Below are positions 40,301 to 61,300 of a stretch of 64,000 nucleotides of DNA, piece by piece. A program made the position numbers and the translations under genes. A model generated the notes under the pieces. The model saw only the letters and a list, made by a program, of their open reading frames with translations. It had not been told where the DNA came from and made no database searches. The DNA comes from Betaproteobacteria bacterium (GTDB taxonomy: Bacteria; Pseudomonadota; Gammaproteobacteria; Burkholderiales; Ga0077523): assembly GCA_016125475.1 (NCBI GenBank), contig WGLR01000003.1, positions 7,945 through 71,944 of the forward strand, read 5' to 3'. Position 1 is the stretch's first letter, and every line of letters starts with the position of its first letter.

Positions 40301-43300
40301 GCCGGTCATGATCGACCTCACGGCGCCGCGTGCGGACCTGCAGGTCGAGGTCGTCGATGCGCCCGCGAGCGCGCGGGGCGGCGAATCCGTCACGATCTCG
40401 TGGCGCGTGCGCAACGCGGGCGATTTCGCGACCGACGCGGGAAGCTGGCGCGACACGGTCTACCTGTCGGCGGACGACGTGCTCGACGCGTCGGACCTGC
40501 TGCTCGGGCAGGTGACGCGCACGGGTGACGTGGCAGCGGGATCGACCTACACGTCGAGCGCGACCGTGTTCGCCCCCAACGACGTGACGGGAGACTACCG
40601 CGTGCTCGTGCGCGCGGACGCCGGCAACGACGTGTTCGAGGGCAATCTCGACGGCAACAACGTCGGCGCGGCACTGACGCTCACGGCGCTCGCGCCGGCC
40701 CCGGTCGCGGACCTGCAGGTGACGGACGTGAGCCTGCCGGCGGGCGGCGTGCCCCGCGAGACGCGGACCGTGCAGTACACCGTGCGCAACGCAGGCGATG
40801 CGCAGGTGTCCGGCACCTGGACCGACCGGATCTACCTGAGTGCATCGGGAACGACGAGCGGCGCGGTACTCGTGGCGAGCGTCGACGTCGCACGCACGCT
40901 CGCGGCGGGCGAGGCTTACACGGCGTCCGCGCAGCTCACGCTGCCCGACCTCGCGGACGGGGACTACCGGGTGCTCGTCGTGACCGACGCGACGCAGCGC
41001 ATCTACGAAGTTCCCCACGAGGACAACAACCAGGGGCTCGCCGACGGCGTCGTCGCGATCGTGCATCCCGATCTCGCCGTCGATGCAGTCCGTGTCGCGG
41101 CGACGGCCGAGTCGGGCACGGTGCTCGACATCGAGTGGGACGCGGCCAACGCCGGCACGAGCGCACTCGCCGGAACCTGGACCGATCGCGTGTATCTCTC
41201 GCGAGATGCGACGATCGGCAGCGGCGACACGCTGCTCGCCGAGTTGACTGCGACACGTTCACTCGCGGCGGGCGAAGGCTACACGGCCGCCGCGCAGTTC
41301 GAAGTGCCGATCGGCGCGACGGGCGAGTATTTCATCATCGTCTCGACGGATGCCCCGAACGACGTCCGCGAACTGGGTTCCGAAGGCAACAACACGCTCG
41401 CGACCGCGTTCTCGGCGGATCTCGCGCCCTACGCCGATCTCGCCGTGTCGGATGTCGTCGCGCCCGCGGTCAGCATCGGCGACCCGGTCGAGGTGACGGT
41501 CTCGTGGGTCGTCACGAACGAGGGCAACGGCGCGGGTCGGACCACCGAGTGGACCGACGCCGTCGTCGCGTCCCGCGATGGCGTCGCGGGCAACGGCGAC
41601 GACGTCGTGCTCGCGCGCTTCACGCACACGGGCGCGCTCGACGTCGGCGCAGGCTACTCCCGCAGCGAGACGTTCCTGCTGCCCGCACGCTTCCAGGGTC
41701 GCTACACGCTCTTCGTGCGCACGGACGTCGACGACACGGTCTTCGAAAACGCGCAGGACGCGAACAATGCCGCGCCGCTCGCGGAGCCGTTCGACGTGAT
41801 GTTCATTCCGTATGCGGATCTCGTGGTCGATTCGGTGGCGCCGACCGGACCCGCTTCGAGCGGACGTGGCCTCGAGGTCACCTGGCAGGTCCGAAACGCG
41901 GGCATCGGAATCACCGACCGGAACGACTGGTCCGACAGGGTGTACCTGACCACCCGGGCGGACGGAAGCCAGCGCACGCTGCTCGGAAGCTTCACGCACA
42001 TCGGCCAGCTCGGGCCGGACGGCGCCTACACGCGCACCGCGACCGTGATCCTGCCCGACGGCATCGAGGGCGCGTACCACCTCGTCGTGGAAACGGGCGG
42101 ACCGTTCGAGTTCGTCTACACGGACAACAACACGCGCGTCTCCGACGCCTTCGACGTCGCGCTCACGCCGCCACCGGATCTCGTGGTGACGTCGATCGTC
42201 GCACCCGGCACGGCGTCGGAGGGATCCGCGATCGACGTCTCCTGGACGGTGCTGAATCAGGGCCAGGGCGACGCGAACGGAACCTGGGTCGACAGCGTCT
42301 ACCTGCGTGAATTCGGCGACACGGGACCTGGCACGCAGATCGGGACCTACACGTTCCAGGGACCCCTCGAGGCCGGAAAGTCCTATACCCGTCGCGAACT
42401 CGTGAACATCCCGCTGCACACGAGCGACCGCTACGAGATCATCGTCCGCACGGACGCCCAGGACGCCGTCTACGAGCACGCCCGGGAGGACAACAACCAG
42501 TCCGTCGACGACACCCAGATCTCCGTCACCGTCCTGCCGCGGCCGGATCTGCAGGTGGCAGACGTGTCGGGGCCGGACGTCGTCGACGCAGGCGGCACCG
42601 CCTCGCTCGAATTCGTCGTGATCAATCAGGGGCCCGTCGCGACGGACGTGGCGAACTGGACCGACCGGGTCTACCTCTCCCTCGACGACAGGATCACGGT
42701 CGACGACATCCTGGTGAGTTCGCTCACGAACGGCGCCGCACTCGCGCCGGGGGAGCAGTACCTGTCGCTCACCTCGACCTTCCAGGTGCCGAAGCGTTTC
42801 CGCGGCACGGTCTACGCGATCGTCTCGGCAGACCACGGCAACGCCGTGGACGAGTGGCCGAACGACACGAACAACATCGCGCTCCATCCGATCTACGTGA
42901 ACCCCTGGCCGTTCGCGGACATCGTCGTGAGCGACGTCGTCGCGCCCGCACAGGCATTCGAGGGCAACCAGGTCGAGGTGCGCTACACGGTCACGAACCT
43001 CGGCAGCGGTCCGACCGACATCGGGAAATGGACGGAACAGATCTGGCTCACGAAGGACAGGAACCGCCCCCACCCCGGACAGGGAGACGTGCTGCTCTCG
43101 AGCTTCGCGTACACGGGCGGGGCGCTCGGCCGCAACGCCGGCTACGACCGTGTCGTGACGGTGAAGCTGCCCGACAGCGTGGTGTCCGGCACGTACTACC
43201 TCACGCCCTGGGTCGACCCCTATGCGCAGATCCTCGAGGACACGCTCGCGGTCAACGTGAATCCGGACGACCCCAGCGAGGTGAACAACAACAACTACAA

Positions 43301-46300
43301 GGCCCGCGCGATCGACCTGATCGGCATACCGCCGGTTCTCCAGCCGCATCCCGACCTCTCCGTCGAATCGGTCGTCGCGGAGGCCTCGGAATTCGCGGGC
43401 GAGGAGTTCACGTTCTCGTGGACCGTCGCGAACACGGGCGAGGGCGCCGCGTCCGGCGGCTGGCTCGACAAGGTGTATCTCTCGGACAACGCGGTTTTCG
43501 ATGCGCCGGGTGCGCACCAGTTCGCGCTCGGTATCTTCGCACCGGCGAAAGCCCTGAATCCGGGCGACGCCTACACGAGCACGCAGACGATCCTGCTCGA
43601 GCCCTCTGCGAAGGGTCAGTACGTTCATGTTCGCCTCGACACGGGGAACGTCCGGCCCTCGGAGCTCGATGCGTCGAACAATCACGCCGTCACGACCACG
43701 TCGGTCACGGACCGCATTCCGGACCTCAGGGCGACGGAAGTCGTGCCAGCCGCGAGCGCGTACTCCGGCGAGAAGACGACGGTGCGCTACACCGTCACGA
43801 ACGACTCGGACGAGACGATCTGGCGCTACACGCAGTACTGGACCGACAAGATCTACCTCTCCAGGGATCCGGTTTTCATCGCCGAGCCCGGTCGCACGAC
43901 GCTGCTCGCGACGATCCAGCAGCCGAACACCGGCCCCCTCGGCCCGCACGAAAGCTACACGCGCGAGATCGAGGTCACGCTGCCGCCCGGCATCGAGGGC
44001 CAGTACTACCTCTACGTGTTCGCGAACGTGGATCCGCAGGGCCTCCCCGGAACGCTCGCCTGGCCCGTCGAGAGCGGGGACGGCATGTTCGTGGCAGGCA
44101 GCGCGCTCGAGTACTACTACCAGCACGCCTACGAGGTCGCGACGAACAACATGGCACGAGGCGAACTGCCCGTCGTGTACCGCGAGCCCGACCTGCGCGT
44201 GACGGACCTCCAGGTGCCGGACACGGTCGCGGCGGGCAGCACGGTGGACGTCACGTTCACCGTCACGAACGTGGGCACGCGCGACACGCGCCAGGACGGC
44301 TGGACCGACCGCGTGTTCCTGTCGGCCGACACCTCGCTCGACACGTTCGACGCGGTGCTGCAGGACGAGTCCAACCCCGCGAGACCGGTGGCCGCGGAGT
44401 TCGTGCGGAAAGGCGTCCTGAAGGCCGGCGAGTCCTACACCGCGACGGTTCGCGTGACGCTGCCGTTCGACGTGTCGGGCGATCTCAACGTCCTCGCGAT
44501 GACCGATGCCACGGCCGATGCCTCGCCCTACAACGCATCCAGCCTTACCGCGCGCCTGTCCGGGGTGCGTTCCGCCCTCGACCGTGTCCGCGAATTCCAG
44601 GGGGAGGGCAACAACCTCACGGCCGCGGCCGTCACCGTGACACCCTACGTCCCGCCGGACCTGCAGGTGACCGTGCTCGGGGTTCCGCTCCGTGCGATCC
44701 GGGGACAGGGCTTCGACGTGAGCTACACGGTTGCCAACCTGGGCGGCGACACGCCGTTCCAGCAGTCCGGCTGGGAGGACCTCGTCTACCTTTCGCGCGA
44801 CGCCTTCCTCGACACGCGCGCGGACCGGTTCATCGCGTCGATCCGGCACGAAGGCGGTCTCGCCGCCGGCGGGTCCTACGACATCGCACGCACGTTCACC
44901 GTGCCGACGGACCTTGCCACCGAGGCGTATTACGTCTTCGTGGTCACGGACCCGGCGCGCTACGACGCGCGCGGCGCCGTGTTCGAGGGAGGCAACGACC
45001 GCAACAACCAGCGCTCGAGCGACGTGCCGATGGTGATCGAGCTGCCGCCTCCCACGGACCTCGTCGTCACCGATGTCGCGGTGCCGTCCGAGGCACGCTC
45101 GGGCGAACCCGTCTCGCTGTCGTGGACGGTCACGAACCAGAGCACGGTCGAGGCGTCCGGTACGTGGTCGGATTCCGTCTACCTCTCCGAGGATGCGACC
45201 TGGGACATCACCGACCGGCCGCTCGGACGCGCGGGCTTCTCGGGCACGCTCGCACCGGGCGCGTCGTACACGCTCGACCTGGACACGCTCATGCCGGGCG
45301 CGACCCCGGGCCACTATCGCGTGATCGTGCGCACCGACATCTTCAACCAGGTGTTCGAGGGCGTCGACGAGGCGAACAACCGGACCGGTTCCGCCGACGA
45401 TCTCGTCGTGTCCGTCGACGAACTGCTGATCGGCACGCCGCTCGACACGGTCCTCGCGAACGGACAGGAGAAGCTCTACCGCATCACGGTGCCGCGCGAC
45501 CAGACCCTGAGGCTCACGCTCACGGCCGGCGACGACCAGAGCGCGAACGAGATCTTCGTGCGACACGACGCCGTGCCGACCTCGGCCGTGTTCGACGCGA
45601 CGTACTCGGGACTGCTCTCGAGCGACCTGACCGCGATCGTGCCCTCGACCGAGCCCGGCACGTACTACGTGCTCGTGCGCAACTTCCGCGCTGGCACCGA
45701 GGGAACCGACGTCCGGCTGCTCGCGGAACTCCTGCCGCTCGTGATCACGGACGTGCACACGGACGCGGGCGGGGACAGCCAGCACGTGACCACGACGATC
45801 CGCGGTGCGCAGTTCCGGGACGGTGCGATCGTGAAGCTCGTGCGGCCGGGCATCGCCGAGTACGAACCGGTCAGGTGGGAAGTCGTCGACAGCACGAAGA
45901 TCATCGCGATGTTCGATTTCACGGACGCGCCGCACGGCCTCTACGATCTCGAGGTGATCAATCCGAACGGCGACACGGCCGTCGTCCCCTATCGCTTCCT
46001 CGTCGAGCGCGCGATCGAGCCGGACGTCACGATCGGTCTCGGCGGGCCGCGCGTGATCCTCGCGGGCGATCAGGCCACGTATTCGGTGGCGCTGCAGAAC
46101 CTTTCGAACCTGGACGCGCCGTACACCTACTTCGAGGTCGGCGTCCCCCAGCTCAACATCAATCCGATCGTCTACGGGCTGCCGTACCTGGAATTCTTCA
46201 CGAACGTGCGCGGCGCGCCTGAAGGGGCGGCAGGTTCCGACAATGCCTCGGTGCCGTTCGTGCAGATGGAGTCGATCACGAACACGATCGGCCAGCTGTC

Positions 46301-49300
46301 GACGTCGGGATTCCTGTTCGACGAGGCGGCCGACGGTTTCGCGGGTTTCTCGTTCAACGTCGCGACCTATCCCGGCCTGCAGGCGCTCCACGAACGGGCA
46401 TTCGACGACTTCCGCGCGCGCATGGCCGCCTCGTTCCCGGATCTCGACGAGAAGCTCGCCGACGGGCCCGCGGGAATCGGCGACTGGTGGAACGCGCTCC
46501 GCGACAAGGCCGACCAGATCCAGCCCGGACTCGGCGCGATCATGGGCAACATCGATTTCGTCGGGCTCTACAACCAGAACGAGGCAGTGCCGAGCGACTG
46601 CGTGATCCCGTTCATCCCGTTCCGGTTCCACATCTACGCGAGTTCCACGTCGATGACGCGCGACGAGTTCGTCGCGTTCCAGACGCAGGAGGCGATCGAC
46701 CTGCGTGACGCGATCCTCGAGGCCGACGACGCGCCCGCGGCCCTGCTCGCGATCGCCGCGAACGAGCAGGACTGGGTGAATCTCTATCTCGCCGCGCTCG
46801 AGGACGCGCAGATCCTGCGGCCGGACGGCGAGACGCCCCCGATCCGCACGCAGCAGCACATCGTGAGCCTCATGAGCATCCTCGCGTCCGGCATCCTCTT
46901 CGGACCCGCGGGCAGCGAGATACGCAGCGACGGCGACCTGCTGGGCTTCTTCGAGACCGTGCGCACGCTGTACGGCCACCAGCAGGACCGGCTCGCGCAG
47001 ATCGAGTTCTGGGATCCGCGCGAGAGCGACTGCTACGAGGGCGAGGTGCCCGTTCCCGCGATTCCGGAGTTCACCAGCCAGGACCTGGGCCTCTCGCAGG
47101 CCACGCACTTCGAGGCGTTCCGCGTCTACGTGCCGTGGATGGATTTCGAGAGTCGCGGCAACGGCCTGCCGCTCGACTTCCAGATCAACGGTCCGCAGCC
47201 CGTCGACGGCGACGAGTTCGCGGCGCTCGACTTCTCGCGCTACCTCATGGGCGAGAGCGGCGGCACGGGCCGTCTCGCGTCGATCACCGGGCCCCAGACG
47301 TTCGACACCCAGGGCTGGCTGCCTGCCTCCGCGCCACTGCCCTACACCGTGAACTTCGAGAACAGCGCGAGTGCGTCGACCTACGTGAACGAGGTGCGCG
47401 TCGTGACCGAGCTCGATCCCGACCTCGACGCACGCTCGTTCGAGCTCGGCGACATCAGGATCGGCGACATCACGATAGACGTTCCCGAAGGAAGGGCGCT
47501 CTACCAGACCGAGCTCGACTTCACCGACACGCGCGGCTTCCTGCTGCGCGTGAGCGCGGGCGTCGATCTCTACCAGGACACGCCGTCCGCGACGTGGCTC
47601 ATCCAGGCGATCGATCCGCTCACGGGCGAACTCCTGAAGGACACGACACGCGGGCTGCTCGCCCCGAACGATGCGCTCGGCAAGGGTGCGGGATTCGTGT
47701 CGTACTCGGTGCAGGTTTCGGACGACGCGCAGACGGGCGCTTCGGTCTCGGCGCAGGCGCGCGTGCTGTTCGACACGCAGGCGCCCGAGGACACCGCGGT
47801 GCTCGAGCAGAGGATCGACGGCGGGGCGCCCGTCACCTCGCTCGACGCGACGCGCATCGGCACGACCGACAACTACACGCTCGCCTGGACCGTGCAGGAC
47901 GACGACGGCGGCTCGGGCTTCGACCACCTCACGCTGTACGTCGCCACGGACGGCGGGGACTTCAGGATCTGGCAGCGGGACGTCGACGCGCAGAACGGTT
48001 CGCTCGTGTTCACGGGCGAGAGCGGGCACACATACGAGTTTCTCGCGCTCTCGACCGACGTCGCGGGCAACCGCGAGGCGCCCGCACCCGGCGTGAACGC
48101 GGTCGCCGACGACTCGGGCGTGAACCTCGGTGCGCTGCCGAGCGTGCCGGGCACGACGCCGCCCAACTTCGGCGTCGCACCGGAGCCGGCCCCCGAACCG
48201 TCGACGAACCCCCTGTTCGTCGCGGCGGAGGCGGGGATTCCGAACGCGCAGCCGTTCACGCAGGTGTCCGAGTTCGACGCGGTGCTGCGGCCGTTCGTCG
48301 CGCAGTCGTTCGTGACCGGGGTCGGGCGCAGCAACGCGGACATTGGACCCATGGCCATCGTCGAGACGCCCGACGGCGACTATCTCGTGTCCGGTGGCGC
48401 GAACCGCAGTGACCTCTACAGGGTCTCGCGGGAGGGGGGCGACGCGGGGGGCCCGTGGGCGAGCCTGGACGACCCCGTCTTCAACCTCGCGTTCGACGGT
48501 CAGGGGCAGCTCTGGGCGACGACGGGCGGCGGTGCGCTGCTCCAGCTCGACCCCGGGACCGGCGAGGTGCTGAACCGCTTCGGCGACGGCGTCACGATCG
48601 CGCTCGCGGTCGAACCGGGCACCGATCGCCTGTTCGTGTCGACGAACGCCGGCGTGCAGATCTTCGACCCGGACACGGGCGTGTTCACGCAGTACAGTCG
48701 CGACCGGGACCTGCGCGTCGGCAGTCTCGCGTTCGACGACGCCGGTGCCCTCTGGGCCGTCACCTGGCCCGATCGCCGGCAGGTCGTGCGCTTCACCGAA
48801 CAGCGTCGCGCCGAGATCATGCTCGAGTTCGATTCCGACATCGACTCGCTCGCATTCGGCCGACCCGGCACCGCCCTGGAGAGGCTGCTCTTCGTCTCGC
48901 ACAACTCGGGGCGCGTCTCGAGCACCGGCGCGGCGGCGGAAGGGGCCGACCTCACGATGGTGGACGTCGCGACGCTGCGTCGTGTCGAGGTCGCATCGGG
49001 GGGCACGCGCGGAGACGTCGTGTTCGCGACGTCCGACGGTCGCCTGCTCGTGAGCCAGTCGCACCAGGTCGATGTCGTGAATCCCGTGTTCGCGCCGAGC
49101 GTGGTCGCGACCTATCCGGTCGCGGATGCCGTGATGCCGCTGCCGTTGCCGTTCGTGTCCGTCGTGTTCAACCAGGACATGTTCACGGGGGACGCCACGG
49201 CCGGGGAGAGCGTGCTGAATCCCGCGAACTACGTGCTGGAAGGCGCGGGCACGGGCACGCAGACGGTGCAGTCCGTCGTGTACGACGCAACCACGCGCAC

Positions 49301-52300
49301 CGCGCTGCTCGGCTTCGCGAACCTGCTGCCGGACGACTATTCGCTGACCGTGCGCGAAGCGGTCTCGAGCGTGTTCGGACAGCCGCTGGCGGCGGATTTC
49401 CAGGTGACGTTCACGGCCGTGAGCGACCTCTCCGCCTATCTCGACATCGGCTTCGGCCTCACGCGCTACGACCGCTCGCTCGGCACGGTGTCCTACGACG
49501 TCACGATCACGAATCGCGGCGACATCGACATCCTGCTGCCGGCGCTGCTCACGCTCGACCCCTCCGACGGCTACGCGGGTGTGCCCGTGGATGCCGCGGG
49601 GCGCACCGACGACGGACGCTGGCTCGTCGACCTCGCGGACAACCTCCCCCCCGGCGGGCGGCTCGCACCCGGTGCGACGACGACCGGGCACACCGTGTCC
49701 GTCGCGAGCCCCGACCGGCGTCGCGTGGAATTCACGACCGGTGTGGCCGCGGCGACACAGCTCAACCGTGCGCCGGGATTCACGTCCGAGCCACCCCTCG
49801 ACGCCAGCGTCGGCGAGACCTGGACGTACCAGGCGCAGGCGCAGGATCCCGACGGCCACGCGACGGTGTTCTTCCTGATGAGCGGGCCCGAGGGCATGAC
49901 CGTGGACAGCGAATCCGGCCTGCTCTCGTGGGAGGTCCAGCCGGGCGTGCCTGCGACACAGCCCGTCGTGCTGCAGGTCTTCGACAGCCGCGGCGCATCC
50001 GCGCTGCAGCGTTTCGTGCTCGACGTCGGTGGCGGCAACCGCGCGCCCGAGTTTCTGTCCGCGCCGACCCAGGTCGAAGGCCGCGAGGGCGTCGCCATCG
50101 AGTTCGACGTCGTGGCGTCCGATCCGGACCAGGACCCGCTCACGATCTGGGCCGACAATCTTCCGGCCGGTGCGTCGTTCGATGCCGATACGCGCACGTT
50201 CAGCTGGCTGCCGGGCTTCGATGCCGCCGGCACGTTCGAGGACGTGCGCTTCTACGCGTCCGACGGTCACTCCGTCACGAACGTCGCGGTGGACATCCTC
50301 GTCGCGCAGGGGTACCGCACGCCCGAACTCGTGCGACCGGCCGACCGCACGGTTCGCGAGGGCGACACGGTCCGGTTCTTCCTGCAGGCGAGCGGCGACG
50401 AGACGCGCGAGCTCACGTTCTCGAGCGCCGTGCTGCCGTGGGGCGCGCAGCTCAACGCCAGGAGCGGACTGTTCGAGTGGACGCCGCTCTTCACGCAGGC
50501 CGGCGAATACGACGTCCCGCTGAGCGTGAGCGACGGGACCTACAAGTACACGGTGTCCACGCACATCAGCGTGACCAATGCGAACGGCGCGCCGCAGTTC
50601 GACCCGCAGGAGGGCTGGGAGGTCTTCGAGGGGCAGCCGCTCACGATCAAGCTCTACGCGTTCGATCCGGACAATCCCTTCTACGAGCCGGGGTTCCGCG
50701 ACGCGGACGGCAACTTCGCGGAGATCGCGCAGACGCCCCGCACGGTAACGGTGTCGGCCGGCAGGCTGCCCGACGGGGCCACGTTCGATCCCGAGACGTT
50801 CGATTTCGAATGGCGTCCCGGTCCTGCGCAGGCCGGCGACTACGCGGTGACGTTCACGGCCGTGGATGACGGCGACGGCACGGGCAGTCCGCTGACCGAC
50901 ACGATCACCGTGCCGATCCGCGTGCTGAACCTGAACCGTACGCCCGTCATGGAACCGGTCGAGAACGTGACGCTCGCGCGCGGCGAGTCGCGCGACGTCC
51001 TCGTGCGCGCCACCGACCCGGAGGGCGGGCAGATCACGCTCGGCGCGACGAGCGAACAGCCGGGCTATCCGCTGCCCGCGTTCATGAGCTTCACGGACAA
51101 CGGCGACGGCACAGGCACGCTGCATCTCGCTCCCGGCGTCGGAGACCGCGGCGAGCACGCGGTGCGCATCGTCGCGAGCGACGACGGCGACGGGGGCGAC
51201 CCGCAGTCCGCGGATTACGTCTTCATCGTGGACGTGACGAGCGCGAACGAACCCCCGAAGCTCGTTTTCCTCGGCGACGTCGTCGCGGTCGCGGGGCAGC
51301 CCGTGCAGATTCCCGTGATCGCGAGCGACATGGACCAGGACCCGCTCACGTTCGGCATCGACGGGCTTCCGGCCGGTGCATCGATCGCGACGACGGCCGT
51401 GTACGGCCACGCCCTGATCACCTGGACACCGCAGACCGGCGACATCGGTTCCCGCGACGTGACCGTGAACGTCGCGGACACCGGAAACGGTGGTGCCGCT
51501 GAAGTCGGAACGGACTCGGGTGCCTTCCGTCTCGTCGTGCGCGACGCGAACACGTCCCCCGTGCTGATCCCCGTCGGGGACAGGCAGGCCACCGAAGGGC
51601 AGACACTCGCGTTCCGGCTCCGCGCGGTCGATGGCGAGGACGATCCCGTGACGTTCCGCGCCGACGGTCTGCCGGCCGGCGCGACGCTCGATCCGACGTC
51701 TGGCGAGTTCAGCTGGACGCCCGCGCTCAACCAGGCCGGGACCCACGACGTGACGTTCACGGCCACCGACGGCAGCGGCTCCAGCGAGGAGCGCATCGCG
51801 ATCTCCGTCGCGAACGCGAACCAGCTGCCCGTGTTCGTGCCGATGCTCACGCAGCTTGCTCGCGAAGGCGCGCAGCTCACGTTCACGGTGGTGGCGGCCG
51901 ACCCGGACGGCGACCCCGTGGTGCTCGCCGCGGGCCACGGTCTGCCCGAGGGGGCGCTGTTCGTGCCGGACCGCGGGGAGTTCCAGTGGACGCCTGCCTT
52001 CGACCAGGCCGGGGAGCACGTGATCACGTTCACGGCCGCCGACCCGAGCGGGACACCGGTGAGTCTCGACGTGACGGTGCGCGTCGCGAACGTGAACCGT
52101 GCACCGGTGCTGCAGGAATCCGATCACGCCTTCCTGATCGGCGAGACGCGCGAGTTCTTCATCCGGGCGACCGACCCCGACGTGGGTACCGCGCTCACGT
52201 ATGGCGCGATCGACCTGCCGTCGGGCGCGACGATCGATCCGGACACGGGACTGTTCTCGTGGACCCCCGGTCCGGGCCAGTCCGGGGACTACCTCGTCAC

Positions 52301-55300
52301 GCTCACGGCCGACGACGGCCAGAGCGTGGACCGGCAGAACATCGTGCTGCGGGCGTCGCTCGAACCTGTTCCGCCCACGCTGCTCGTCGAACTCACGCCG
52401 GGCTTCCCGGCCCTGCCGGACCAGGGCGTGCTGCTGCACGCTGTCGCCGACAGCTTCTCCGCGCTCGCGTCGCTGCGCGTGTTCGTGGGTGGGCAGGAGA
52501 TCGCACTCGACGACGACGGGCGCGCGTTCATCAGTGCGTCGACGCCCGGCAAGATCGAGGTGCGGGCCGTCGCGACCGACGTGGACGGCGGTGTCGCGGA
52601 ACGTACGCTGTTCTTCAAGGTCCGCGATCCGGACGACAGGGCGGCGCCGGTCGTCGCGCTTGGGGCGGACGTCGTCCGGGCCCGCGTGACCGGCGCGATC
52701 GACGTCGACGCGTCGGTGTCCGACGTGAACCTCGACACGTGGCGTCTCGAGATTTCCGGCGACGGCAGCCACTGGCAGGTGCTCGCGGAGGGGGACGACT
52801 CCGTCGACGGCGCGCTCGCCCAGTTCGACGGCCGCCGTTTCGCGAACGGGTTCTACACGCTCCGCGTCACCGCACGCGACATCGGCGGGCGCACGACCGT
52901 CGCGACGACCCGGATCGAGGTCGACACGGCGACCAAGCTCGGGCAGTACACGCGCGACGACACGGACCTCGTGGTCGATCTCGGAGGCGGCGTGACGTGG
53001 ACGCTCGCGCGTGCGTACGACTCCCTCGGCCAGACGGGGGCGTTCGGTGCAGGGTGGCACCTGCCTGGCCGGGACGTCGACTTCGAATCGAACGTGCCGC
53101 TCACGGGCCGCGAACATCTCGGCGTCTTCGATGCGTATGCGGACGGCACGCGGGTCTACCTGACGCTCCCCACGGGCGAGAGAGCAGGCTTCTCGTTCAC
53201 GCCTACGGAGGTGGACGTCGGCGGCGTGAAGTTCTGGCGTGCGGCCTGGGCGGCCGCGGACGGCAGCGGCTACCGGCTGTCCTCGTCCGCAGTGCTGCTC
53301 ACGAAGGCTGGTGGCAGCTACTACCGCTCGGCGGACGGGCAGCCCTACAACCCGCTCTCGCCGGCCGCGGACGGCACCGACTTCACGCTCGAGGCGCCGG
53401 ACGGCACGCGCTATCTCATCGACGCAGCCCGGGGAACGCAGGAGATCGTCACGGCCGCGGGCAAGCGCCTCTTCCTGAGCGACAACGCGGTCACGGCCGA
53501 GAACGGGGCCGCGCTCACGTTCCTGCGAGACCCGGCAGGACGGATCGTGCGCGCCGTCGCACCGGACGGCACGACGGTCACGTACCGCTACGACGCGGAC
53601 GGCCGGCTCGTCGCCTCCCGGAATCTCTCCACGGGCGAGGGCGCGCGCTATGCCTACGAGCAGGGCCGCCTAGTCGGCGTGTCGATCGTCGGGCAGGGGG
53701 GCGAAGCGATCGCCTATGGTGGTGACGGTACCGTCGTCGTGAGCGCGATCGATGCCGATCTCGGCGGTTCGGCCGAGTTCACGGGGCGCGTGACGGATGG
53801 CGACGTCACCGCCGGCGAAAGCGACCGTTACACGTTCAGCGTGCGGGCGAGCGAGGTCCTCGGCACTGCCGGCGGACAGCTCATCGTGCGGGCGGAAGTC
53901 GAGGGGCTCGGCGGCTTCACGGCATCGGATCCCGCGGTATCGGGTCTCGCGCCGCTCTCCGTCGAACGCGACGGTGATCGCGTCACGGCGCTTTTCGCGG
54001 TGCAGGAGGAAGGGCTCTACACGCTCGCGGTGAGCGGGGAAGCCGGAACCGGGGGAAGTTACCGGCTGTCGCTGTCGATCGCGGGCGACCTCGATCTCGA
54101 CGGCACCGTGGACGGTGTCGACAGCGGGCTCATGGACGCGGGCGGCGCGTCCGCGGACATCGACGGCGACGGCACGACGGACCGCACGGACCGGCAGGTG
54201 CTGTTCGCGAACTTCGGCTTCACGCAGAACGTCGGGCCGCAGATCGCCGCGGACCTGCCGGACGTCTTCACGCACGAGGCGCTGCAGGTGCTCGTCGACC
54301 TCGCCGCGGTCGCGGACGATCCCGATGGCGACGCGGTCTATTACCGTGTGCTCTCGAGCGAGCACGGCGACGCCGTGCTGTCCGCGGACGGACGGTTCGT
54401 GATCTTCACGCCCGAGGCGGGATTCTCCGGCGACGCGAGCTTCCGGATCACCGCAGACGACGGATTCAACAGCTCGCCCGAGGTCGACGTGCCCGTGACG
54501 GTGAGCGACGCACCGCTCGTCGCGATCGACTTCGCGGAGCGGCGCCTGCTCGTCGACGTCGGGGAGACGTCCGTGATCCGCGTGATCGGCGACTTCGCCG
54601 ATCAGCAGGACGTCGCGCTGCCGCTCGCGTACGTCAACGCCCGCGTGCTCGATCCCGCCGTCGCGACGCTCACCCCGCAGGGTCTGCTCACCGCCGTGAA
54701 GGACGGCCACACGGTGCTGATGGCGAGCCGCGGTGCGGCCGCTGCGGCCACCGTGATCGGGGTCGGGATGCCCGCGGACGACAATCTCATGATCTCCCGG
54801 GTGCTGGGCATCGACGCGTATCCGGACAGCGTGACCATCGTGCCTCAGGGAGGCACGCGCCAGATCGTCACGTCGCTCGGCTTCGGCCAGCAGACGTTCG
54901 TCACCGAAGGCGAAAACGGCACGCGTTACGTCATCGGCAACACCGACGTCGCGACGGTCACCGAGGACGGGCTCGTCGAGGCCGTCGGGGCCGTCGGGGC
55001 CGGCGAAACCACGGTGACGGTCATCTACGGACATGGCGAGGAAGTCATCCGCGTCAAGGTCGAGGCGCCGGTCACCACGACCGGGACCGCGACCATCGGG
55101 GAGAACGGCGGTGTCGTCGCGAACGGCGAAGGCGTGATGGTCGCCTTCGGACCCGGACAGGTCACGGGTGACGCGGTCGTGACGGTCACGACCGTCGCGG
55201 AGCAGGACCTGTCGCTCGCCCTGCCGTCGAACCCGCAGGGCGAGACGACGTTCGATTACGTCGGTGCGTTCGATCTCGACATCGCGGGCGGTGAGTTGAA

Positions 55301-58300
55301 CGGACCGCTGCAGCTCGCGGTTCCCGTCGCGCCGGGAGCCGCCGAGCCGGGCGACACGGTCTATTTCTTCCAGAAGCGCATCCTGCCGGTCGGGCCGGAC
55401 GGCGAATTCATGGATGTCTGGACCGTCGTCGATTCCGGCAGGGTCGGCGCGGACGGGATGGCGCGCAGCGCCTCGCCGCCGTTCCCGGGCCTCAGCAACC
55501 GCGGCAACGTGCTGGTGGCCCGGGCGGCGCAGCCGCTCGGGATCATCCGGATCGACCTCGGCTACACGGCCGGGCTCACGATGGCGTTCTCGCTCGCGAT
55601 CGGCATCGCCGCGACGGGCGGCCTCGCGGGCGCCGTGGTGGGTGCGGGCCTCATCGCGGGTTATGCCGGCATGCTCGTGCTGCCGCTCGCGTACCAGGCC
55701 CAGCAGCTCCGGATCTGGCGCGACTGGGCCGCGAACCCGCAGGGTTACGACCTCGACGTGAACGTGCCGCCGAACGCGCCGATCACGCAGATCATTCCCG
55801 ACATCCCGGCGCCGCCGACGACCGGGGGCGATCCGACACTGCCGCGCATCGACACGCTCGACGCGACCGTCGACGGCAACGGCGACGTGCAGCTCACGAT
55901 CGGCGGCTACAGCTTCTTCGACCTGCAGAGCCCGGCGTTCGCGGGTGACGTGATCGGCGACGACATCCGGGACGCACGCGTCGTCTTCCAGATGCAGGGG
56001 CGGGAAGTCGTCGTGAAGGGCGAGGACTTCGTCGATGCCTACAGCGAGGTCGACGCCTCGGGCGCGTTCCACAGCACGCTGGTTCTCGACGTGCCGCAGG
56101 ACGTGCTGCTCGGCATGAGCGACATCCGCGTCGACCGGCCACACTACGAGGTCGCGGCGAGCGCCGGCGGCGTGGACGTCGACGTGGCCTGGACCGGCAG
56201 CACGACGGCGAGCATCGACAACAAGGGCGGCTACGGCTTCACGGGGCACTGGGGGCCCGGTGGCGCCGCGGTGCTGGACGTGATCGACATCGCGCGCATC
56301 GACGAGACGAACGTGACCGAACGCGTGATCAAGCAGATCGCGTTCGACGGTGCGGGCTCGGTCTGGGACGCCATCGCGACGCCCGACCTCTCGCGCGTCT
56401 ACGTCGCGACGAACGACGGCATCGGGGTCGTCGACGCGTTCACGCTGCAGCAGTTCGACGTCGACCCCGACGCGGCCGGCATCAATCGCATCGACATCCC
56501 GTTCGGCGGGCGCGTGACGGATCTCACGCTCGACCCGTCGGGTCGGTACCTGTACGCGGCCGGGACCGGTCTCGTCTACATCATCGACCTGAATCCGGGA
56601 TCGCCGGACTTCCACAAGGTCACGACGGTGCTCGGCGTCGACTCGCCCGCGAACGGCAAGATCAACGACATCCGCGTGAACGCGGACGGCACCCGGCTGT
56701 TCGTCGCCGTGCCGCACACCGAGCTCTTCGGCCCGATGAGCTGGAACAGCGGCAGCCGCGAGGCCGGGAAGATCATCGTCTACAACGTGGACGAGAACGA
56801 CCGCACGAGCAGCGGCAATCCGGGCGGTTCGCGCAGGTGGCACGAGGTCATCGGCACGTTCGACGCCGGCCTCGAGCCCTTCGAGATCGAGGCGACGACC
56901 GACCGCGATCTCATGATCTTCACGTCGCGGCTCGATCTCAGGAAAGGCCTGCATCCGCTGCGCATCACGAACGACAATCCGAACGGCTTCCAGGTCTCGA
57001 TCGGGACGATCGGCCTCACCCTCAACAACGAACGCGTCGGCGTACGGACGTTCGGGGGCAGCTACGACCCGTTCGGCTACTACCCGGGGTTCACGACGCG
57101 GCTCACGGGCCAGGTCTTCGACCTCGACGTGCGCAACGCGACGGGTGTCGCGGTCACGCCCGACCGCAAGTACGCTTTCGTGGGCGACTGGTACATCCCG
57201 CGCCTGTTCTACATGGACCCGATGACCGCGGTCGAGATCGAGGACCTGCACCACGTGGGATCGAAGATTGCCGTGGTGAAGGATCCCTTCGGGCCGAACC
57301 CGACCGTGCTCGGCGCGACCTCGCCGATCCCGATGTCGTTCCTCGAGGAGGTCGAGGTCGATGCCGCCGGCAAGAAGCTCTACGTGAATTTCCGCAACGT
57401 CGGCAACGTCGCCGTCTACGACATCGAGAAGCTCGAACTGCGCGCGGAGTCGGGAGCCCAGGACTTCCACGACCTGCCGCTCGACCACGCGTGGGCGGAC
57501 GATTCCGATCCCGCGAACGTGTTCAACCTGCCCGCCATCGACGTGCAGGAACTGAGCCGCGGTCTCTCGCTGCAGGAGAACCAGGTGCTGCGGCTCATCG
57601 CACCGACGGGCGTCGTCGATCTGGACGGCACGGGCAACGAACCGCTCACGTTCGAGTGGGAGATCGACACGGGGCTGCTCGGCGAGGCCGACTACCGGTC
57701 GCGGCTCTACTTCAGCGCGCTCGCGCCGGGCGAAGGGCTGTACCCGGACGATCCGTATCGCGACCGCAAGGAGAATGCGCCCGGAGATTTCGCGTTCGGA
57801 CAGGCCACCTTCCTGGATCTGCTCGAGTACGCGTTCAGCGATCCGCCCAGCGTGCCGGACGACCAGGATGCGAATCCCGGGAGGATCCTCACGATCGGGC
57901 AGGGGCTCGAGATCGGCAGGAAGTACCGTGTCGACGCCGACGGGAACGTCTCCGCGATCGGCGACGCACCGGACCCGAAGCGCACGATCGTCGAACTCGA
58001 TGCCGCGTATCGAAAGGCGCTCACGGCCGGACAGTTCTACTACTGGGGGGTCGAGATCGAGAACCGGGGGATCGACCGGGCCGAGGCATTCACGGCGAAG
58101 CACGTCGAGAACACGGGTACGTACAACGGCGTGACCGTGCTCACGCACGGCTTCCAGCTCGACCCGCGGACGGATCTCGCCAACTCGTCGTTCCAGCAGC
58201 CCGAAGCGTTCATCGATCTCGCGCGGCTCATCTCGACCGCGGGCGGTGGCGGGGTCGTCATGCTCTACGACAAGAACACGGGGCAATGGCGAGAGGTGAA

Positions 58301-61300
58301 GGCCGACGGCAGCTTCGGTGCCACCGGCTCGGCGGCCCTCCTGCCGGGCAAGCCGGTCGTGCTCGTGTCGGACTGGAACCGCGAGTCCGACATCAGCGAT
58401 TCCGGTTTCTCGGAGGCCGCCGCGGATGCGCTGTTCGCGTCGTTGCTGGATCTCGACGTACAGACGGGTCACACGCTGCTGAAATCGCCGCTGCACTTCA
58501 TCGGCCACAGCCGGGGTACGTCCGTCAACAGCGAGATCATCCAGCGGCTGGGCTGGTACGACATCGTGACGAGCGGCATCCAGATGACCACGCTCGATCC
58601 GCACGAGTTCGAGCAGAAGAGCCTCGACGTACCGCTCACGCAGCTCGTCGAGTATGCGCAGGCGGCCCTCACCGCGGTGTCGGTCACCTCGACCGTTGCT
58701 TCGCTGGCGGGTGGCAATGTCCCGCTCGCGATCAAGATCGCGATCTGGACGTGGAAGCTCGGTCAGTGGCTCGCGAACGCGACGACGTCCGTCGCCAAGA
58801 ATCTCGGGGTGCAGATCAAGCCGATCCCCTACGCAGACTTCAAGGATCCCGATGTCAAGGTATGGGCGAACGTCGCATTCGCCGACAACTACTACCAGAC
58901 CGCAGCCAACCCGAACGCGACGCCGGGGCTGCTTCTGAACCATTTCACCGCCACACCCAACGGACGTTCCATCCCGGGTGTCAGTCTCGACGTGAACCTC
59001 AACCTCGTCTCGGGCTTCCAGCAGGAGGACTTTCTCGGCTTCGGCATCGACATGGGTGTCGGCGGGCCGCACAGCCGTGTCTGGCAGTGGTATGCCGGCA
59101 CGGTCAACACCGGGATTCTCGAGTTCGACGGCAATCCGATCTGGCGTTCACTCGGCGACGAGGGGCTCGCGACCGAGGCACTCGGGCTGCCGATGAAGGA
59201 CTACCAGTTCGGCACGACGCCCTGGTATTCGGTCGATCCGGCGTGGGTGGACTCGGGACAGTGGGGCACGAACGGCAGCATCACGGAGGGCGTGGGCGCC
59301 GGCTGGTACTTCAGCCCAACCGGAGGCGGCATGGCGTACCGACCCGGTTCCGGAGGAACCGTGGCGTTCAGCACCGACAACACGGAAGTCACCGACGCGC
59401 CGGCGGGATTCCCGGACGTCAACTCCGTCTTCAACGGGAGCTTCGAGTACGGCACGCGCCAGTCCCTGCTCAACTACATCGCATGGAAGGCGTCCGGGGC
59501 GGCGGATCTTCCTGGCGACCTGGGACGCTTCCCCGTGTCCTACGAGATTCCCGGCTGGTCGATGCACGGCGGCCAGGGCTTCACGGTCGGGGTCCCGGTC
59601 TTCGGTGACATCGACATCGGCGGGCTCTTCATGGTCGAGACCTCGCCGACGGAGAACTTCAAGCGGTTCGTGAAGTACGCGATCGACACTTACGTCGACA
59701 AGATGTTCGAGACCGCCCAGCAGACCGTGCTCAAGTTCGTCCTGCCGGACATCCCCGGCACGCGGGACCAGAGACTGCTCAAGTTCGCCGAGCAGAAGCT
59801 GCTCGCGAAGTTCGGCGTGCCGCCGTCCCAGGCCGTGCTCGGCAAATACTTCTCCGCAGTCAAGGCACTCGACAAGGCAGGTCAGCTCGCGATCTTCTTC
59901 CTCGACAAGATCATCACCCAGATCGCGTCCGAGACCGGCACGCCGGGTCCGAATCTGCAGGATGCGATCACGGGTGCACCGGGGCCCAACGGACTGCCGC
60001 TCGGGATCGACAACATCAAGGCCTACCTTCAGTTCGGGATCGACCAGGGCGTGAGTTTCCTCCCCAACTTCCCGAGCGACTACGCCCTGATCATGGGTGC
60101 CGGTGAAGCGCTCCGCAGCGTGATCGGGAACGGTCTGCCAGACGGGGCGAGCACGCTGCGTGACGCCCTGCTGAATTACCTCGACTACAACTCGAATCTC
60201 GACAGCATCACGCACAACCGCCTGTACATCCCCGCGGGCAAGCAGTTCCTGCGCTTCAATGTCTGGACACCCGTCGCATTCCTGCCGGACTCGAAGCTCG
60301 AGATCACGTTCACGAAGCTCGACGGCACGAGTGCGACGGTCGAGAAGGTCATCGAAGAAGGGCTCTTCTCCGGCAAGGATTACGCCGTGCCGATTCCCGA
60401 CGGTTTCGCGGGCGAGATCGCGACGTTCACCGTCAGGCACGAGGGCATGGGCGTCACGGAAGAGTTCCGTCAATACCTCCAGGATCTCGTGGACATCGAT
60501 GCGTTCGACGGGACTGCGGCCGAATCGATCGGTGGCGTGATCCAGTATGCGGCCGGTGCCTTCGCGGGCGTCGTCGGCGGAATGAGCCAGCTCATGCTCG
60601 TGGACGACTTCCAGTTCACGGACACCGAGACCGGCACGCCGCTGCTCGGCGAAAGCTTCGCGATGACCGGCACGGCGGACACCTCGGGTGGCGTCACCCT
60701 GGACGACGTCGAGGCGATGGCGGACCTCGCGCGAACGCAGTGGCTCACCGTGGACGGCCTTGACGACGTCGCGGCGACGCTGGAGTCGATCCGGTTCGAC
60801 GTGACGGACCTCACCGGCACGTCGCTCGCGGTCTTCGACAACGGCGTGATCCGCGTCGACCGGGACGCGGCGGGGATGGGATGGTTCGTCGACGCGACGC
60901 CGGACGACGCCGCGGAGTTCGCCGCAACGAGCCAGGCGGGCGAGTGGCGGGCGTCCGCGACGTCCGCCGCGTTCGGCCGCTACGACCTGCTCACGGTGAT
61001 CTCCCACGAGATGGGCCACGCGCTAGGGCTCGCGGACGTGTCCACGAGCGTGGAACCCGGGCGGCTCATGACTGCGTCGCTCGGGACGGGCACGAGGCGG
61101 ATGGCCTCGGTGCAGGACGTCCCGACAGCGGACTCGAGCGGGGCCGGCACCGTCGACACGCTCCCTGCCGCTCCGATCGTGCTGAACCTCGCGTCACCGC
61201 GATCGCCTGCCGTGACCGTCGCGGCCCCGCAGACACTGGCCGGATCGGGATCCCCGCTCCTCGAAGGCATCACGAACGGCACGTTCGCGGTGAGTGACGG

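Follow-up and report, generated by a model that had tools for sequence, protein, structure and literature searches.

What does a set of lipase-like motifs amount to when it lies about 10,000 residues into a giant bacterial protein? The question is raised by a stretch of 64,000 nucleotides (hereafter the window) from contig WGLR01000003.1 of the Betaproteobacteria bacterium assembly GCA_016125475.1, in which the giant gene G2 occupies the forward strand and runs past the window end. A preliminary description of this DNA, made from the letters alone, had picked out the strings VTVLTHGF, LHFIGHSRGTSV, TTLDPHEF and GGPHSRVWQWY, together with a hydrophobic stretch, and had read them as a pancreatic-lipase-like alpha/beta-hydrolase at the head of an adhesin-like stalk. 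All five strings recur in the G2 frame where they had been placed (Table 1), with 29 residues from Ser to Asp and 158 from Asp to His. We consider it probable that the segment 58098-59426 is an extracellular alpha/beta-hydrolase, complete in its triad (Ser138-Asp167-His325) and equipped with an HG oxyanion motif, and most likely a serine carboxyl-ester hydrolase of the esterase, lipase or phospholipase A1 type.

A predicted alpha/beta-hydrolase fold within G2

Domain residues are numbered from the codon at 58098, and the core comprises 351 aa; it begins at about residue 9,941 counted from the ATG at 28305, or about 10,007 counted from the start of the open frame. Two AlphaFold2 (AF2) models were made, both from family alignments. 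The longer, of 481 aa, reached a predicted local distance difference test score (pLDDT) of 79.9 and a predicted template-modelling score (pTM) of 0.85, and the 351-aa core model (58098-59150) reached 87.4 and 0.86. Local confidence was 95-98 (pLDDT) near the Ser and the Asp and about 89 near the His. The modelled fold is that of an alpha/beta-hydrolase, in agreement with what the preliminary description had proposed, and the Ser, Asp and His that it had chosen are conserved residues which, in the models, occupy the canonical topological positions: nucleophile, acid and histidine follow one another in the canonical order, with the acid after strand beta6.

Foldseek searches of the PDB placed the same fold at the top, since all 50 best matches to either model were alpha/beta-hydrolases (probability up to 1.00, best E=1.7e-5). 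The best individual matches were the DUF915 "cell surface hydrolase" 3lp5 (E=1.7e-5) and the lipase LipC12 (6cl4, E=4e-5), and the most numerous were thioesterases of non-ribosomal peptide synthetases and polyketide synthases (NRPS/PKS), namely SulM, RedJ, Pik TE (thioesterase) and Vlm2 TE. Bacterial lipases (LipC12, Streptomyces MAS1), CALB, cutinases and a polyhydroxybutyrate (PHB) depolymerase made up the other matches named.

A large bacterial family without a Pfam entry

A word-indexed protein search returned 114 homologues with E-values down to 6.5e-77 (6.5e-77 to 1e-30 for dozens of members), nearly none of which carried a precomputed Pfam domain. When a family profile was run against 1.84 billion cluster representatives, 3,155 proteins matched at E<=1e-3 and 1,423 at E<=1e-30; the representatives stand for clusters at 50% identity, and 3,155 is a lower bound on the family. 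By sequence, then, the domain belongs to a very large bacterial family that is absent from Pfam and NCBIfam. Among ten members whose source names were inspected, none was called a hydrolase; the names included "hypothetical protein", "YD repeat protein" and "CARDB domain-containing protein". Every element of the family motif set (THGF / DW..ES / HFIGHSRG / TTLDPH / FADNYYQ / TPNG / H....WYxGT) is present in the window copy.

Family members come in two kinds. The first is a stand-alone protein of about 500 aa, with a signal peptide directly before the TTVITHGF strand and with dockerin repeats or a PEP-CTERM-like tail at its end; in the second the domain is built into a protein of as many as 7,711 aa, which in some cases contains it two or three times. 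Such tandem copies were seen in P0115, P0116, P0117 and P0122, those of P0115 (3,322 aa) lying at residues 418-820, 1188-1543 and 1916-2281. The gene neighbourhoods of two stand-alone homologues held housekeeping or unannotated genes and gave no functional clue, and a literature search found no paper on bacterial relatives of PF00151 or on this domain in giant proteins.

The GxSxG and HG strings are short, G2 has some 12,000 residues and Pfam and NCBIfam are silent, which would suit a chance coincidence of motifs in a very long low-complexity protein with no hydrolase domain at all. Thousands of homologues with the same motifs, a confident AF2 model and Foldseek probabilities of about 1.0 for hydrolases refute this reading, and we give it practically no credence. 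Some database matches were themselves set aside: Arc and TmcA_N (Pfam/NCBIfam) were judged spurious, and the sole phmmer match against PDB sequences, of "YDKNTGQWREVKADGS" to designed beta-trefoils, was discarded as a short repeat-like coincidence.

Probable distant kinship with pancreatic lipases

When the family profile was searched against 177,635 distinct PDB sequences, five of the six matches at E<=10 were pancreatic lipase-related proteins 2 and 1 (PLRP2 and PLRP1), the sixth being a carbonic anhydrase. The best, PLRP2 1bu8, was sub-threshold (E=0.012) and aligned on HxIGHSxG...T.LDP. PF00151, the pancreatic lipase family, likewise appeared below its cut-off of 27 bits in five of ten relatives (10.9-17.4 bits, E 0.003-0.29), while the window domain, for which PF00151 membership had been proposed as a check, gave no match to it even at E<=10.

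The link was also examined by profile-profile comparison. The lipase profile was built from human PNLIP (identical to 1lpa), human LPL (identical to 6oau) and 120 PNLIP/PLRP homologues; the homologue search had yielded only mammalian PNLIP, PLRP1 and PLRP2, and LPL was added to these. Local hhalign of the 195-sequence family alignment against it gave 89.8% probability (E=1.8e-6) over 76 columns from beta4 to the Asp, in which the beta4-helix segment pairs with CICVDWKGGSRTGYTQA..AEVAYFVEFL of pancreatic lipase; as negative controls, Bacillus subtilis LipA gave 0.7% and a reversed lipase profile 0.2%. The global alignment extended over 228 columns and paired HGF/HGF, SDW/VDW, GHSRG/GHSLG, TTLDP/TGLDP, TPNGR/FPNGG and GGPHSRVWQWY/ACNHLRSYKYY. 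LTHGF (58140-58154) is thereby set against IIHGF of human pancreatic lipase, and Ser138, Asp167 and His325 against Ser152, Asp176 and (in the global alignment only) His263 of human PNLIP. Taken alone, the N-terminal HG region gave 53%, and the His region 0.2%, which is not significant although its best local alignment is exactly the His motif; the equivalence with His263 therefore rests on the global alignment, on position and on conservation. Schrag et al. reportedly placed, in 1992, the catalytic Asp of pancreatic lipase directly after beta6, about 24 residues past the Ser, in an LDP motif.

PF00151 is, judged by sequence, the nearest known family, and the domain is most probably a distant relative of it that shares the unusual acid-after-beta6 arrangement, though not a member by the Pfam criterion. 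Pancreatic lipase was not among the 50 best Foldseek matches of either the full or the trimmed core model, the latter having been tried as a way to raise its rank without effect. Searches of 56001-63998 found no PLAT domain (PF01477), which all the vertebrate homologues carry. The pancreatic-lipase likeness of the preliminary description thus holds for the nearest sequence family and for the HG/GxSxG/LDP order, and fails for the PF00151 cut-off, the disulfide-bounded lid and the PLAT domain.

The prominence of NRPS/PKS thioesterases among the structure matches suggests another kind of alpha/beta-hydrolase, of thioesterase, acyltransferase or peptidase type, which, instead of hydrolysing external esters, might cleave the giant protein to which it belongs, or else carry out the transfer or cyclisation of an acyl group. 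Thioesterase domains such as those of DEBS, Pik and Srf have the same Ser/Asp/His spacing, with the Asp after beta6 and a helical lid inserted there, which explains their high Foldseek rank, and they stand as the second-closest family; PF00975 (Thioesterase) was also found sub-threshold in three of ten relatives (12-17.6 bits, cut-off 26.4), and a zinc-peptidase-like HExxH block some 600 residues downstream would fit a cluster of processing enzymes. Yet the window domain gave no PF00975 match in Pfam, TM-scores to the thioesterases were low (0.28-0.42), the profile search of PDB sequences returned relatives of pancreatic lipase and no thioesterase, the family is extracellular, and Pfam scans found no carrier-protein (PP-binding), condensation, ketosynthase (KS) or other assembly-line domain anywhere in G2. 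We regard this alternative as improbable, and return to the esterase reading.

Conservation of the predicted active site

Conservation was counted over 195 aligned domain instances. Asp167 is kept in 193 of them, His325 in 188 and Ser138 in 158; the oxyanion His17 and its neighbour Gly18 are kept in 170 and 183, and the four catalytic positions (oxyanion His, Ser, Asp, His) are intact together in 157. Comparable constancy is seen at Gly140 and Thr164 (195 each), Trp93 (192), Tyr332 (191), Thr335 (192) and Gly289 of the TPNG loop (193 of 194). Ser is replaced by Gly in 32 instances, 20 of which also lack the oxyanion His and have Arg, Pro, Gln or Asn instead, and this coupled loss indicates that the two residues act together or are tied to one function. 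A survey of 80 genome loci carrying the domain, which extended up to 10 kb (3,333 aa) upstream, found all four residues in 63 giant-ORF (open reading frame) loci, including all 25 of the closest (L001-L025), and the intact set in these nearest orthologues supports an enzymatic role for the window copy.

Several polar residues outside the triad are also nearly invariant: His133 (193/195), His169 (173/195, with Glu170 beside it), Asp263 (192/195), Asn264 (171/195) and Tyr265 (182/195). Together these residues might make up a binding site, for a metal or a substrate, beside the active site. Among stand-alone or short proteins of cyanobacteria the Ser-to-Gly change is often paired with THG to TRG or TPG, and variants with a dead active site include P0019, P0028, P0036, P0037, P0039 and P0040, which also keep Asp167.

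A predicted helical hairpin at the lid position

The Asp-to-His distance had been described as longer than in classical lipases, and the excess can be traced to an insertion of about 60 residues at the lid position. The segment from Asp167 to Trp256 has 88 aa in the window copy against a family median of 25, and its lengths over the 195 instances have two modes, at 20-30 and 60-90; every one of the 79 alignable giant-context loci has 57-112 aa here (median 82). Without the roughly 60 extra residues the distance from Asp to His would be about 95, close to the 87 of pancreatic lipase. The insertion is thus specific to the giant-protein context and absent from the stand-alone enzymes.

AF2 models the insert as two long helices (pLDDT about 66-77), placed where alpha/beta-hydrolases put a cap or lid. 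On the Kyte-Doolittle scale they average 1.03 and 0.38, they carry few charges, and the second has three Trp, features of an amphipathic rather than a transmembrane-grade hairpin. A transmembrane hairpin was ruled out, these averages being well below the 1.94 of a glycine-zipper segment upstream (55560-55694). The suggestion in the preliminary description of a lid or membrane-contact insert is a reasonable reading of the model: the clade-specific feature is real, and it may act in that way.

A fixed place in a conserved giant protein

With few exceptions among the 80 loci, the ORF that contains the domain is giant, and most of these ORFs reach the upstream limit; where a stop codon is visible, most end 1,200-2,800 residues past the domain. 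The closest genomic relatives are metagenome-assembled genomes of Burkholderiales at 80%, 75% and 63% identity, which points to a member of this order as the probable source of the window. At least 1,486 residues follow the domain in the window, and about 1,815 aa follow it in the L001 orthologue, which is 80% identical in the domain, so that what had been called a "lipase head" is an internal module. A polymorphic-toxin tip was likewise ruled out, since the domain lies inside the protein, always at the same place, and is conserved from phylum to phylum.

Over its last 4,500 visible residues G2 aligns with the giant ORFs of these loci in single BLASTP high-scoring segment pairs (HSPs) of 3,000-4,000 aa at 37-53% identity (71% for L001). 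Such single HSPs were obtained for Burkholderiales (L001), Thiobacillaceae (L014), Zoogloea (L078), Sphingobium (L016), Sphingopyxis (L046), Rhodobacterales (L068/L033), Chromatiales (L067), Pirellulaceae/Planctomycetota (L012/L006) and Acidimicrobiales (L035), and the block aligned in pieces in the cyanobacterium Trichormus (L071), in Verrucomicrobiia and in other Planctomycetota. On these alignments the block looks like part of an orthologous giant gene that has spread across phyla, presumably by horizontal transfer.

Immediately downstream of the hydrolase lies a partner domain (59427..60620), which had no Pfam match and is probably a jelly-roll with a long insert. The HExxH block that follows matched Peptidase_M10 at E=4.5e-4 (20.6 bits, below the cut-off of 24), with weaker Reprolysin hints. 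It can also be written AAGMGWFVDATP ... YDLLTVISHEMGHALGL, and it likewise comes after the hydrolase in P0006 and L001, which indicates that the two hydrolase-type modules travel together. The propeller-like region of the block gave weak Lactonase/WD40 hints and no more.

The glycine-zipper-like segment at 55560-55694 (GYTAGLTMAFSLAIGIAATGGLAGAVVGAGLIAGYAGMLVLPLAY, about 45 residues) has a 19-aa hydropathy of 1.94, the maximum in G2, and is conserved in L001; it is a strongly hydrophobic element within a supposedly extracellular giant protein. Two more hydropathy windows of G2 exceed 1.6, at 46860-46917 and 62961-63018. Directly downstream of the orthologous giant gene in L001, the interval 17238-19726 encodes two signalling proteins: on the + strand a response regulator of LuxR type with 217 aa, and on the - strand a hybrid sensor histidine kinase with 610 aa. 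The matching region on the present contig falls past the window end.

Proposed function

In the mechanism that we propose, the giant protein would be exported, as suggested by the signal peptides of stand-alone relatives and by the N-terminal FRRK.L.E.LEPR..LSAD motif that G2 shares with its neighbour G1, and the hydrolase would work outside the cell as a serine carboxyl-esterase tethered to it. His325 and Asp167 would activate Ser138, which would attack the ester carbonyl to form an acyl-enzyme, with backbone NH groups after HG and after the Ser stabilising the oxyanion. The amphipathic hairpin may gate the active site or anchor it at a hydrophobic surface. The substrate could be a lipid, a phospholipid or another ester, and analogy with the nearest family suggests one of the first two. 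From the sequence and the model, esterase activity of the window copy is likely.

Several observations weigh against this assignment. Neither Pfam-A nor NCBIfam gave a hydrolase match for the domain or its 1,200-aa context even at E<=10. TM-scores to solved hydrolases in Foldseek were low (0.25-0.45), so that the active-site details have no close template behind them. Fifteen of the 80 giant-context loci (about 19%) have Gly, Asp or Asn in place of the Ser, and nine of the fifteen have also replaced His325 by Ser, Asp or Thr; these loci (L026, L029, L032, L036, L037, L043, L046, L047, L050, L051, L057, L060, L064, L065 and L079) come from Rhodobacteraceae, Sphingopyxis, Novosphingobium and other lineages, and all keep Asp167. 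The giant protein can thus function without this catalysis. A further point concerns the substrate: a hydrolase joined to a jelly-roll resembling a carbohydrate-binding module (CBM) and to a dockerin is an architecture typical of carbohydrate esterases, not of lipases.

The Ser-less orthologues, in which the domain and the flanking block are retained together with Asp167, indicate a further role of the domain for which catalysis is not required, and could be taken further, to a mainly structural or binding module whose fold holds a ligand or a neighbouring domain and whose catalysis is vestigial or irrelevant. The Ser-to-Gly change in 32 of the 195 family instances and the constant position within a collinear stretch of 4,000 aa or more would fit such a module. 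We nevertheless think it unlikely for the window copy, which like all of its closest relatives keeps the oxyanion His, Ser, Asp and His; that 157 of 195 instances, drawn from different phyla, retain all four points to selection for catalysis, and stand-alone secreted versions make sense as enzymes. Catalysis appears, from these comparisons, to be the majority state and the state of the window copy, yet to have been given up repeatedly without loss of the domain.

The dockerin architecture bears on a different alternative, that the domain is an active serine esterase whose substrate is an esterified polysaccharide or other polymer (extracellular polysaccharide, cell-wall glycan, cutin, polyhydroxyalkanoate), in place of a membrane lipid; the surface fibre would then bear a tethered esterase for carbohydrates or polymers. 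The stand-alone layout of signal peptide, hydrolase, CBM-like jelly-roll and dockerin makes a polysaccharide or polymer ester a serious rival substrate, and lectin-like or CBM-like modules are plentiful in G2 (Laminin_G_3, a CBM_35 hint), G1 carries Malectin, and cutinases and a PHB depolymerase are among the Foldseek matches. Against this, the CBM_4_9 and CBM_35_2 hints at the partner-domain position of stand-alone relatives are weak (E 0.02-0.25, all far below the Pfam cut-offs), the nearest sequence family is a lipase family, and the hairpin in the lid position, being amphipathic and rich in Trp, would suit activation at the interface with a hydrophobic surface. We hold a polymer substrate to be possible, and the strongest of the alternatives, while still preferring the main assignment.

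The contact-dependent membrane attack envisaged in the preliminary description would be compatible with the nearby glycine zipper and the HExxH block. On a broader reading, which we offer as speculation and consider doubtful, the domain founds a large unrecognised bacterial sister family of the animal pancreatic/lipoprotein-lipase family and is, in the giant clade, the esterase part of a conserved machine, extracellular and longer than 10,000 aa (transmembrane-grade glycine zipper, lidded serine esterase, HExxH zinc-peptidase-like block), spread by horizontal transfer over Proteobacteria, Planctomycetota, Actinobacteriota and Cyanobacteria and acting by contact on another cell's envelope or a hydrophobic surface.

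The giant genes of the window

The window is GC-rich (65-72%) and holds two giant genes on the + strand, G1 and G2. The reading frame of G2 is open from 28107 to 63998 (>63998); its likely start codon is the ATG at 28305, where the N-terminus reads MASPVMNL, and its full length is probably about 12,200 aa. Pfam content includes Laminin_G_3, CARDB, He_PIG, Big_9, Cadherin_5, PKD and Cohesin, with a single isolated RHS-repeat match, and the same scans found no RTX repeats, cysteine-protease processing domain or Rhs/PAAR toxin-delivery signature in G2. G1 carries 21 RTX nonapeptide (HemolysinCabind) stretches, many right-handed beta-helix/NosD repeats and Malectin domains, and ends in the same Big_9/Cadherin/He_PIG/PKD modules as G2. 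The two genes are adjacent on the same strand, with 56 nt from the G1 stop codon to the start of the G2 open frame.

Neither G1 nor G2 has a classical signal peptide. Their shared N-terminal motif reads FRRKPLLEMLEPRVPLSADA in G2 (28449-28493) and FRRKALFEALEPRLLLSADL in G1 (about 3490-3530), and may be an export or sorting signal. Antisense open frames overlap both genes, among them - strand 53670-59072 (1,800 aa) and 41259-53117 (3,952 aa), with up to 4,136 stop-free codons; such frames are expected in coding DNA of 68% GC and have no homologue support, and all hydrolase homologies lie in the + frame. In the 481-aa model the C-terminal extension has pLDDT 85-93 for residues 401-430 and low confidence elsewhere.

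Table 1. Giant genes of the window, parts of the hydrolase domain and the order of the surrounding modules (window positions; residue numbers are those of the domain)
Feature	Position	Strand	Basis or remark
G1	3271-28050	+	8,259 aa
G2	28305..63998	+	11,898 codons visible from ATG; runs past window end
Conserved collinear block of G2	50499..62400	+	single BLASTP HSPs of 3,000-4,000 aa
Block order 1-6: He_PIG repeats; YD/RHS-containing region; Cadherin + Big_2; glycine zipper; propeller-like region; Ig-like LTAGQFYYWGV domain		+	Pfam, sequence
Block order 7-12: hydrolase; NGSFE...PGWS jelly-roll-like; HExxH block; second NGTF jelly-roll-like; Cadherin, Big_9, He_PIG, PKD; cohesin-like + dockerin-like modules		+	Pfam, sequence
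Catalytic core of predicted alpha/beta-hydrolase domain	58098..59150	+	AF2, Foldseek, family homologues
VTVLTHGF	58131-58154	+	G2 frame
HGF oxyanion-hole motif, His17-Gly18-Phe19, after first core strand (12-16)	58146..58154	+	model secondary structure, conservation
Strand beta4 and conserved helix, VVLVSDWNRESDISDSGFSEAAADALFASLL	58356..58448	+	model, conservation; strand 87-90 = VLVSDW
Ser motif, LHFIGHSRGTSV	58491-58526	+	G2 frame
Ser138, predicted nucleophile in GHSRG, between strand 132-137 and helix 140-154	58509..58511	+	nucleophile elbow in model
TTLDPHEF	58587-58610	+	G2 frame
Asp167, predicted triad acid in TTLDPHE, right after strand 161-166 (beta6)	58596..58598	+	model, conservation
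Inserted helical hairpin, helices 180-204 and 210-235, lid/cap position	58611..58832	+	AF2
Hydrophobic stretch of the preliminary description, inside hairpin	58695-58775	+	G2 frame
Strand beta7 motif VWANVAFADNYYQT (strand 259-266, FADNYYQ)	58860..58901	+	model, conservation
TATPNGRS loop	58947..58970	+	conservation; pairs with FFPNGG of pancreatic lipase (global profile alignment)
GGPHSRVWQWY	59061-59093	+	G2 frame
His325, predicted triad base in GGPHSRVWQWYAGT, N-terminal end of helix 324-336, after strand 297-300 (beta8)	59070..59072	+	model, conservation
Conserved C-terminal family extension, TPWY...EGVGAGWYFSPTGGG..RP	59151..59426	+	covered by family profile
Downstream partner domain, VFNGSFEYG..IPGWSMHGG to ..MLVDDFQF	59427..60620	+	order kept in homologues
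HExxH zinc-peptidase-like motif block, AAGMGWFVDATP ... LLTVISHEMGHALGL	60867..61031 (block 60621-61268)	+	Peptidase_M10 sub-threshold
Model order: strand 12-16 then H17-G18-F19; strand 87-90 (VLVSDW); helix 104-122; strand 132-137 then Ser138; helix 140-154		+	AF2
Model order, continued: strand 161-166 then Asp167; helices 180-204 and 210-235; strand 259-266 (FADNYYQ); strand 297-300; helix 324-336 with His325 at its start		+	AF2

Significance

Both the fold and the chemistry are ordinary; the family is large and unannotated, with a distant but specific link to the pancreatic lipases, and its clade with the hairpin has a fixed place in a giant protein conserved across phyla. With a family definition, thousands of proteins could be annotated, among them probable new esterases or lipases of environmental bacteria, and the link to PF00151 bears on the origin of the animal lipase gene family. 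Within the giant protein the domain is a fixed landmark, and one Ser codon (58509-58511) offers a testable enzymatic handle on giant surface proteins, for which the natural Ser-less and His-less variants provide a built-in comparison of catalytic with non-catalytic roles.

Comparison with known systems

The pancreatic lipases of PF00151 (PNLIP Ser152-Asp176-His263) resemble the domain in its predicted alpha/beta-hydrolase fold, in the HGF after the first core strand, in a DW strand followed by a conserved helix, in the GHSxG elbow, in the LDP acid right after beta6 and about 25-29 residues from the Ser, in the PNG loop, and in a His followed by x-R-x-aromatic-x-aromatic-Tyr at the start of a helix, all of them collinear in the profile-profile alignment. 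Unlike PNLIP, the domain has no cysteine in residues 1-351, and hence none of its disulfides and no Cys237-Cys261 lid; its lid-like insert follows beta6 instead of preceding the His, with only about 24 residues from strand 297-300 to His325; it has no PLAT/colipase-binding domain such as vertebrate pancreatic lipases carry; and it is bacterial and set inside a giant protein.

The NRPS/PKS thioesterases of PF00975 (SulM TE 8w2c, Pik TE 2h7x, RedJ 3qmw) form the best-populated group of structure matches and differ in TM-score, in assembly-line context and in the extracellular setting of the present family, as set out above. The DUF915 structures 3lp5, 3fle and 3ds8, the lipases LipC12 (6cl4) and Streptomyces MAS1 (5h6b) and Fusarium cutinase share top Foldseek E-values, a minimal Ser-Asp-His core and an extracellular location. 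Identity to them is 11-14%, and the alignments with 3lp5, 3fle and the cutinases extend over no more than about 165-180 columns; the acid is placed differently, the inserts are not the same, and neither Pfam nor the profile search of PDB sequences gave a sequence-level signal to DUF915 hydrolases, small lipases or cutinases.

Modules carried by giant surface or toxin proteins, or delivered as toxins, are well known from the RTX adhesins MpIBP and LapA, from the alpha/beta-hydrolase phospholipase A1 (PLA1) effector domain of MARTX toxins and from the Tle lipases of type VI secretion systems. The likeness lies in a hydrolase or binding module in the C-terminal part of an extracellular protein that is very long and repetitive. 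No match to any of these systems, in sequence or in fold, was seen, and the module described here differs from them in being fixed across phyla rather than a variable C-terminal toxin.

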